A stretch of 64,000 nt of DNA. Origin: a virus. Taxonomy: Duplodnaviria; Caudoviricetes. This document shows, in pieces, positions 37,555 through 38,690 of this stretch. The position numbers and the translations under genes are program-made. Within the stretch, counting starts at the first letter, position 1. Every line of letters starts with the position of its first letter. Below the pieces are notes generated by a model. The model was not told the DNA's origin. It did not search any database and worked only from the letters and a program-made list of their open reading frames with translations. The stretch lies in the IMG/VR virus record IMGVR_UViG_3300046318_000318; one strand, written 5' to 3'.

Positions 37555-38690
37555 ATCTTTAATAACACTTTATTCAAATGTTATTAAAGATACCCAATAT
37601 CACTATTGGGTCTTACCACTTATTACTCACGTAAGACAAAGCTCACATTTTCACATTAGATTCTATATTCTTTTACTCTTATAGACTTTACAGTCAGAGA
37701 TATTCCTTTAAGAATCTTACGTGGGTTTAAAGTCTTTCTACCATATCGTGTTATTAGTACCAGGGGCTGACTATGCAATCTTAGGCTTTTCCTGGATTCA
37801 GTCATGCTACAACTAATAACGCATCAGAGTAATTACTTCTGATATTTGACTTAGGTAATCTCCATTAGACTTATACCTTCTGTATTTAATCCGACCAGAC
37901 TGCCTTTCGCATGTATCTGGTTTTACTGTTTCCAGTAGTGAGCTAAACTCACATTTCGGTCAGATTGGTCCCAGAGTAACTCTGGACTTTGGAGATGGGC
38001 ACCCACTCGTTAAAGTGTTTTACCGTCTTTCGATAACTTTTACGCTCATTGACATAGCATGTGGTTTAAACATCGCTTGTCTTGATGGACTACAAGTTAT
38101 TTTTTCGGTGGCGTCTTGTTTATCTGTCTGCTTAATCGTTGTCGCTATTCCAAGGGCGAGTCCACCCATCCTGGCGAATGAGCTTCAATCTCTCACGACT
38201 ATCCTATAAACTTTTAAGCTTTTCCATTATTTCAGACCTTACAGCTAACGTCTATATCAGGCGATTAATATAGACATATGCGTATCTGTTGTCATGGCGA
38301 CAGATGTTCTCGATGATTGTTCAAGAACATCGATATTCCTCACATGAGTACATTACTGAAACTCATGCAACCTTTTACAAGGACGATATACTTAGGAACG
38401 CTAAGTATAATTAACTGTCTTTCACTCTCGTGTGGAGCTATTGAACTTAAAGCCACCAGTATCAAGACTAATCCTGGTTTCAATGATATTATTTATATAC
38501 CGCGCAAGGCGGTCGAGGTTTTTCTGGTGGGGATTTGATAGACCCTGTCGTTGCAGCAACACGTTTAGCCCTAGCAGACTGCAATCGTTTAAGGCTGTTG
38601 TCTATCTCATCCAGTTTGAACAACGACACAAGGTCGCACGCTCTCCAGAAATAACCCCATGAGAAATCATTCCACATGGCGATCACTTTC
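37555..38690 (-). ncRNA. candidate large structured ncRNA A (about 1.1 kb)
   Basis: dense hairpins, four minus-strand GNRA-capped stems, nested long-range helices; no convincing ORF. Confidence 0.6.

Follow-up and report, generated by a model that had tools for sequence, protein, structure and literature searches.

A giant structured RNA beside tRNA genes of an uncultured jumbo phage carries a group I-like core and a copy of the ribosomal L1 stalk

What is encoded between a 101-aa open reading frame (ORF) and two intron-containing tRNA genes (38690-37552, minus strand) in the viral DNA of IMG/VR record IMGVR_UViG_3300046318_000318? A first-pass annotation had proposed a giant structured non-coding RNA that feeds into the intron-tRNA pair. 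The whole stretch analysed here, 64,000 nt in length and hereafter called the window, encodes chimallin (PF25677) and a divergent family B polymerase of phiKZ-like phages, and its source is an uncultured nucleus-forming jumbo phage. Among isolated phages, the closest chimallin shares only 34% identity with that of the window, and the window phage is present unchanged in several JGI assemblies. A related phage contains a permuted tmRNA of the betaproteobacterial type (L164:1477-1779), which gives a hint at the host group.

The two tRNAs on one side of the RNA are followed by a terminator candidate and then by a TilS-like gene (Table 1). Both carry group I introns matched by Rfam, one of 229 nt in tRNA-Arg(UCU) (37517-37289) and one of 234 nt in the tRNA with a CAU anticodon (37200-36967). 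The latter tRNA, beside the TilS-like gene, is probably Ile2, and intron-less equivalents of it were called in L161 and L164. The sigma70-like promoter candidate lies upstream of the 101-aa ORF, and its position is retained in the homologous loci L160 and L161. In L161, this ORF is deleted and the promoter candidate stands directly before the RNA; the ORF is dispensable for the RNA. Because L161 also keeps the RNA before intron-less tRNAs, the RNA is independent of the downstream introns. Therefore, only one half of the proposed link to an intron-tRNA pair stood: the adjacency to a tRNA 5' end recurs in the window, L160, L161 and L198, but the introns are incidental.

Further structured elements were observed in the same phage. 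A small one at 39070-39260 (minus strand), with a strong terminator at its end, is 96-99% conserved in L160 and L161. Other group I introns lie at 7080-7407, 19515-19807 and 19886-20196 (minus strand), two of them in tandem, and four group I introns stand in tandem at the matching place of L035. The tRNA-Leu(UAA) at 50040-50360 (minus strand) has a group I intron (Rfam match 50131-50339) apparently inserted at the end of the D-arm instead of the anticodon loop, and an orphan tRNA 3' half follows near 50030-49980. After a tRNA cluster come about 1.25 kb without a long ORF (48730-49985, minus strand) with a hammerhead-like core at about 49376-49340; the chimallivirus G001 has a similar hammerhead-like core at the start of its 1.85-kb RNA, which contains the stalk described below.

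Table 1. Coordinates of the RNA and its flanking features in the window.
Feature	Positions	Strand	Basis or remark
Sigma70-like promoter candidate	38995..39024	-	Consensus match alone; in this region such matches are no more frequent than by chance
101-aa ORF, no family match	38691..38996	-	Absent in L161
62-codon ORF ending ...EKPRPP..., or RNA 5' domain	38489..38677	-	
Conserved 5' motif block and successive hairpins; the GAGA and GUAA tetraloop stems lie here	38228..38530	-	
Isolated copy of the 23S rRNA L1 stalk, helices 76-78	38130..38219	-	Rfam RF02541 positions 2126-2215, 46.8 bits, E 4.2e-12
Peripheral module bounded by CCACCGAAAAA and GAAAGACGGUAAAAC	38017..38111	-	
P3 5' strand (37996-37991), J3/4, P4 hairpin without J4/5 (37986-37970), P6 5' strand (37969-37967)	37967..37996	-	
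P6a extension, 84 nt, contains the UACUG-GAAA-CAGUA hairpin	37880..37963	-	
P6 3' strand, 2-nt J6/7, P7 5' strand (37872-37867), J7/3, P3 3' strand (37863-37858), P8 5' strand (37857-37854)	37854..37879	-	
P8 extension, about 110 nt	37743..37853	-	
P8 3' strand, 3-nt J8/7, P7 3' strand (37735-37730) completing a flush 6-bp P7	37730..37742	-	
P9-like region, 3' end GUGGUAAG	37612..37729	-	
Terminal double hairpin: 7-8 bp GNRA hairpin and 14-bp stem	37554..37611	-	Family signature
tRNA-Arg(UCU)	37248..37551	-	ARAGORN on the in-silico spliced sequence
tRNA with CAU anticodon	36927..37237	-	Read from the sequence; spliced form not called by ARAGORN
Intrinsic terminator candidate, closes the RNA-tRNA-tRNA unit	36878..36918	-	

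The proposal of a giant structured non-coding RNA is backed by folding statistics, by covariation among homologues and by conservation far above that of synonymous sites. In comparison with 40 dinucleotide shuffles, the whole region folded with a z-score of -7.0 on the minus strand and -5.9 on the plus strand. The four GNRA-capped stems described earlier on the minus strand (37593-37610, 37924-37937, 38371-38382 and 38423-38432) are all in place, and so is the strand bias of such loops. Ten GNRA hairpins of at least 3 bp were counted on the minus strand and two on the plus strand, while shuffled sequences gave 2.6 +/- 1.6 (n = 1000), with one in 1000 reaching ten. When stems of at least 4 bp were considered, seven were observed against 0.95 in shuffles, and none of 1000 shuffles reached seven. 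The same bias was seen in distant homologues, at 13 to 1 in L047 and 5 to 0 in L164. The 14-bp terminal stem exists as well and leaves a gap of 2 nt before tRNA-Arg(UCU). The nested pairings of the 5' domain fared less well, since both complementary pairs are present but lack covariation support; the UUUCUGG helix is broken in one close homologue, and CCAG at 38527-38524 has an alternative partner, CUGG at about 38459. No second match to the RNA region was found elsewhere in the window, in agreement with the remark of the first-pass annotation that a region it called B is not similar.

Homologues were recovered via neighbouring proteins, yielding L160 (95.8%), L161 (93.6%) and the distant member L164, the last with a match in the 5' motif block (nhmmer, E 1.5e-16), in which 8 of the 67 consensus pairs are compensatory among four sequences. 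Relative to L161, the RNA differs by about 6%, with three changes in 139 positions of the core and three in 97 of the stalk, compared with about 30% at third codon positions of the flanking genes. The terminal double hairpin also occurs in L047 (about 1.85 kb) and in the roughly 600-nt member L198:10620-11215. Across six sequences, it showed compensatory changes in 10 of its 21 pairs and 99.2% of cells paired, with 0 of 500 shuffles. The three distant homologues (L164, L047 and L198) have the same disabled core, described below, and the covarying terminal double hairpin. Only four independent lineages were found. BLAST of the RNA region and of the L164 RNA against isolated phages gave nothing, an exact 15-mer scan and a CAGGATTAGT motif scan of viral contigs returned only chance matches, the terminal-hairpin pattern had no match in viral or genome contigs, and locus searches with single proteins found no relatives. 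In the chimalliviruses G007 and G009, the motif search detected no family member, so that either the distribution is patchy or detection is limited.

At the 5' boundary, it is possible, if doubtful, that the 62-codon ORF is a small gene or leader peptide whose KPRPP could stall ribosomes and that the RNA starts near 38530, which would be compatible with any of the readings discussed below. The ORF spans the first 190 nt or so, its frame is open in the window, L160, L161 and, with a different N-terminus, L164, its changes outside codons 12-14 are mostly synonymous or conservative, and the 5' stems show no covariation. Against a coding function, the peptide has no homologue among 5.8 billion protein clusters, and its likeness to L164 is limited to the DNA motif in which KPRPP lies. 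Furthermore, its pN/pS of 0.59 derives from only 6-12 changes, and no such ORF is found at the corresponding place in L047 or L198.

The region 37996-37612 (minus strand) contains the helical framework of a tRNA-type group I intron, namely the P3-P7 pseudoknot, P4-P6 and P8, a feature that the first-pass annotation had missed along with the L1-stalk copy. In the aligned blocks of the four lineages, P3, P4, P6, P7 and P8 differ in sequence per lineage, and P3, P7 and P8 all covary, while the junction bases (AAA in J3/4, CC-AA and AA-GGU around P6) are constant in all members. Around P3-P7, L164 resembles a tRNA-type group I intron, and a covariance model built from six ordinary introns matched L164 (E 1e-9, plus its P9), L047 (4e-6) and L198 (1e-4). 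On the window's own core, which holds 84 and 109 extra bases in P6a and P8, this model gave a misaligned match at E 0.12 and did not find the core; the window core alone also had no sequence match to the homologue cores. Its identification rests on a motif search and homology. A search of 3.1 Mb of DNA with the helix-and-junction motif, which was refined with these sequences in view, recovered the window, L160, L161, L164, L047 and L198 together with four ordinary introns and a single false hit; among shuffles, the window core was found in 1 of 20,000. Imposing the nested core pairs on the fold costs about 3 kcal/mol, with P7 uncounted. As a separate observation, the 12 nt before P3 (window 38008-37997, minus strand; L164:3362-3373) pair best with the CCA end of a neighbouring tRNA; this was noticed post hoc, may reflect G/C bias and does not recur in L161, L047 or L198.

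The P7 bulge, J4/5 and J8/7 are the G-site and P1-docking parts of the Tetrahymena active site (PMC10020454). In all four phage lineages, P7 is instead a flush helix of 6-7 bp with unconstrained sequence and without the bulged A263/G264-C311 G-site and its base triples, a weaker bulged register being possible in the window only. J8/7 measures 3-4 nt in all four lineages compared with 6 nt in ordinary introns, and J4/5 is absent in three of the four, with P4 closing as a hairpin. Group I introns use J4/5 and a J8/7 of 6-7 nt for P1 docking and metal binding; in the window, P4 closes as a hairpin and J8/7 has 3 nt. Around the RNA, no flanking exons or gene halves, no U-G 5' splice site and no conserved terminal G were found; the omega-G equivalent, G37612, is lost in L164, L047 and L198.

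The main rival explanation is a ribozyme with new chemistry, in which an IC3-type core rewired like that of GIR1 would cleave, branch or process RNA, for instance its own 3' end or, in an RNase P-like manner, a docked pre-tRNA held by the stalk. GIR1 likewise goes back to IC3-like introns and enters P7 through a 3-nt junction (PMC2219692), RNase P holds tRNA with the same double T-loop, and the fixation of the junction bases in all members fits an active core. However, GIR1 by definition retains the P7 G pocket and omega-G (PMC2219692), while the flush phage P7 varies freely among lineages and the omega-G equivalent is not kept in the three distant members. Nor is there a P15: an intact P8 is present, and no partner recurs consistently for the strand that precedes P3. 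Taken together, we consider such a ribozyme unlikely.

The L1-stalk copy was found with Rfam in E-value mode, which matched it to the bacterial 23S model over the L1 stalk only; at the gathering score nothing was matched in the region, and no family matches the whole RNA. Similarity to 23S rRNA does not extend beyond helices 76-78, and the same isolated span occurs in other phages. A degenerate 23S domain V was rejected on the ground that similarity ends at these helices. An assembly chimera with host rRNA was rejected as well, the copy being identical in several independent assemblies, divergent in a compensatory manner and present in L160 and L161, and a 49-codon ORF over the stalk was rejected with 0-1 synonymous changes.

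In E. coli numbering, 39 positions have a conservation of at least 95% among 119 real rRNA stalk heads, and the window stalk retains 33 of them; the other six have changed as three pairs, G2112A/A2169G, G2124U/C2174G and C2129G/G2159C. Both T-loops (2114-2119 and 2167-2171) have unchanged bases and the platform (A38207 = 2112, G38150 = 2169) is still purine-purine, which are the sequence features of the tRNA-elbow module. In the ribosome, the 2112-2169 platform stacks on tRNA G19-C56 (PMC5309774, PMC3664808). The G2112A/A2169G swap also occurs in 1 of 118 real 23S rRNAs, and three phage stalks have U at 2112, outside the usual purine-purine platform. The helix-77 pair (U38195 = 2124, G38145 = 2174) corresponds to G2124-C2174, presumably the key uL1 contact in the L1-RNA structures. 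This pair, which was not fixed by the scan pattern, is present in 118 of 118 scanned rRNAs, and six of seven phage copies deviate from it, in four distinct ways. Domain I of uL1 binds at helix 77 (PMC5689012).

Isolated stalks were also found in the chimalliviruses G001 and G008 and in the metagenome contigs L047 and L051. In the tRNA arrays of large phages, further copies precede tRNA-Arg(ACG) by about 55 nt (L026:4447, L027:1708, L028:4790 and L029:455), and no chimallin match was obtained in the two tested phages of this type, G002 and G004. Most of these stalks were detected by a pattern that fixes the T-loop bases, while the Rfam model detected those of the window and G008; a search with the stalk alone against isolated phages matched only rRNA contaminants. 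The position of the stalk varies, being 5' of the core in the window and 3' of it in L047, and the RNA of L164 and L198 lacks a stalk. In G008 and G001, the stalk belongs to a different large RNA, related to the window RNA near 35740-36240 or its L164 counterpart. That second structured RNA (window 35740-36240, minus strand), which has no Rfam match, shares an end motif with L164:772-1372 and L198:12800-13980, and its L198 copy includes an L1 stalk ahead of tRNA-Arg(UCU).

In L051, an intact-looking group I core is preceded on its 5' side by a stalk closely related to that of the window and by the same CCACCG module that CCACCGAAAAA and GAAAGACGGUAAAAC delimit there, an arrangement that suggests how such domains entered the RNA. 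This intron (L051:1477-2260, minus strand), whose active site looks intact and whose 5' portion holds the stalk, is followed by a 3' exon of tRNA-Leu but has no adjacent tRNA 5' half, and is a candidate for trans-splicing or for an ancestral form.

Alternatively, the stalk could act as a ribosomal-protein decoy that titrates uL1 and so disturbs ribosome assembly or relieves repression of the L11-L1 operon, or that recruits ribosomes. Helices 76-78 are indeed kept whole with correct spacing, and one phage lineage (L028 and L029) retains all 39 conserved positions. However, six phage copies, that of the window among them, depart from the helix-77 pair that all 118 rRNAs share, and a decoy appears highly unlikely. 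Least probable of all is a giant intron that still splices with protein assistance or is merely decaying: the phage is rich in group I introns, the 3' end GUGGUAAG is the same as in the intact introns of L051 and L167, and in L051 this stalk and module accompany a core that looks intact, but no tRNA or gene halves flank the RNA, the sequence past the omega-G equivalent is a conserved covarying hairpin pair, and decay would not produce covarying helices and conservation several-fold above neutral sites while catalytic parts were lost in four lineages.

We therefore favour, with a probability of roughly 0.55, a domesticated group I intron, that is, a non-splicing giant scaffold RNA that would be co-transcribed with the tRNAs and bind tRNA elbows. 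This reading builds on the observed helices and their covariation, the loss of catalytic features and the L1 stalk with its paired changes. A tRNA-type (IC3-like) intron would have lost its exons and active site, kept the P3-P4-P6-P7-P8 frame and gained large peripheral domains, one of which in the window lineage would be a captured 23S L1 stalk. Given that only 2 nt separate the last stem from tRNA-Arg, and 6-18 nt separate it from a tRNA 5' end in L198 and L161, the RNA is probably transcribed together with the two tRNAs, and its 3' end may be made when RNase P matures tRNA-Arg. Through GNRA contacts, it may fold into a compact or oligomeric particle like those of GOLLD and ROOL (PMC12286853). 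The least certain steps of this proposal are that the double T-loop of the stalk docks tRNA elbows without uL1 and that the RNA serves as a tRNA-holding scaffold, sheltering or concentrating tRNAs during infection. Because L164 and L198 lack the stalk, elbow binding would be an accessory and not the basic function of the family.

A broader and more tentative proposal, for which we would not quite claim even odds, is that nucleus-forming jumbo phages remodelled a group I intron, giving a new giant RNA class with a captured ribosomal tRNA-gripping arm, which binds or processes tRNAs, possibly with new ribozyme chemistry, and whose stalk is mobile among phage RNA classes. A domesticated intron of this kind would be the second reuse of a group I fold after GIR1 and the first without a G pocket, as well as evidence for the capture and reuse of functional rRNA pieces by phages. 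Because both its apparent origin from a disabled self-splicing intron and its likely ligand-binding part, the tRNA-elbow arm of the ribosome, can be read from the sequence, the function of a giant phage RNA becomes directly testable.

No prior report of such an RNA was found in the literature, subscription literature being mostly beyond the search. A comparison with known systems showed partial likeness to several. With tRNA-type, IC3-like group I introns (RF00028), the RNA shares the P3-P4-P6-P7-P8-P9.0 order, the junction motifs and the P9 end, and homologue cores match their model. In contrast to these introns, it lacks exons, P1 and J4/5, has a 3-nt J8/7 and an unbulged, variable P7, does not keep omega-G, and possesses 700 nt of 5' domains and a conserved terminal double hairpin. 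The lariat-capping ribozyme GIR1 is similar as an IC3-derived core put to other use with a 3-nt junction into P7 (PMC2219692), but it has P15, the G pocket and omega-G, comprises about 180 nt and resides in eukaryotic twin-ribozyme introns, none of which holds for the phage RNA. As in the double T-loop elbow binders, namely the 23S L1 stalk, RNase P and T-box stem I, the platform and both L1-stalk T-loops are present; the phage copy differs in being an rRNA derivative outside the ribosome, grafted at varied positions on several phage RNAs and altered at the helix-77 pair.

The models of GOLLD (RF02032) and ROOL (RF03087) gave no match at E up to 10 in the window or at E 0.05 in the homologue loci. 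To our knowledge, neither of these RNAs has a known origin or ligand. Both are large ornate phage RNAs beside tRNA genes with variable 5' and conserved 3' parts, for which no group I-like core or rRNA fragment is reported (PMC12286853, PMC5737381), and the present RNA has the same phage location adjoining tRNA genes. Judged by its sequence, it appears to fall outside group I introns, GIR1, GOLLD and ROOL, and looks like a conserved, undescribed class of giant phage RNA of about 1.1 kb, which would work most like GOLLD and ROOL.
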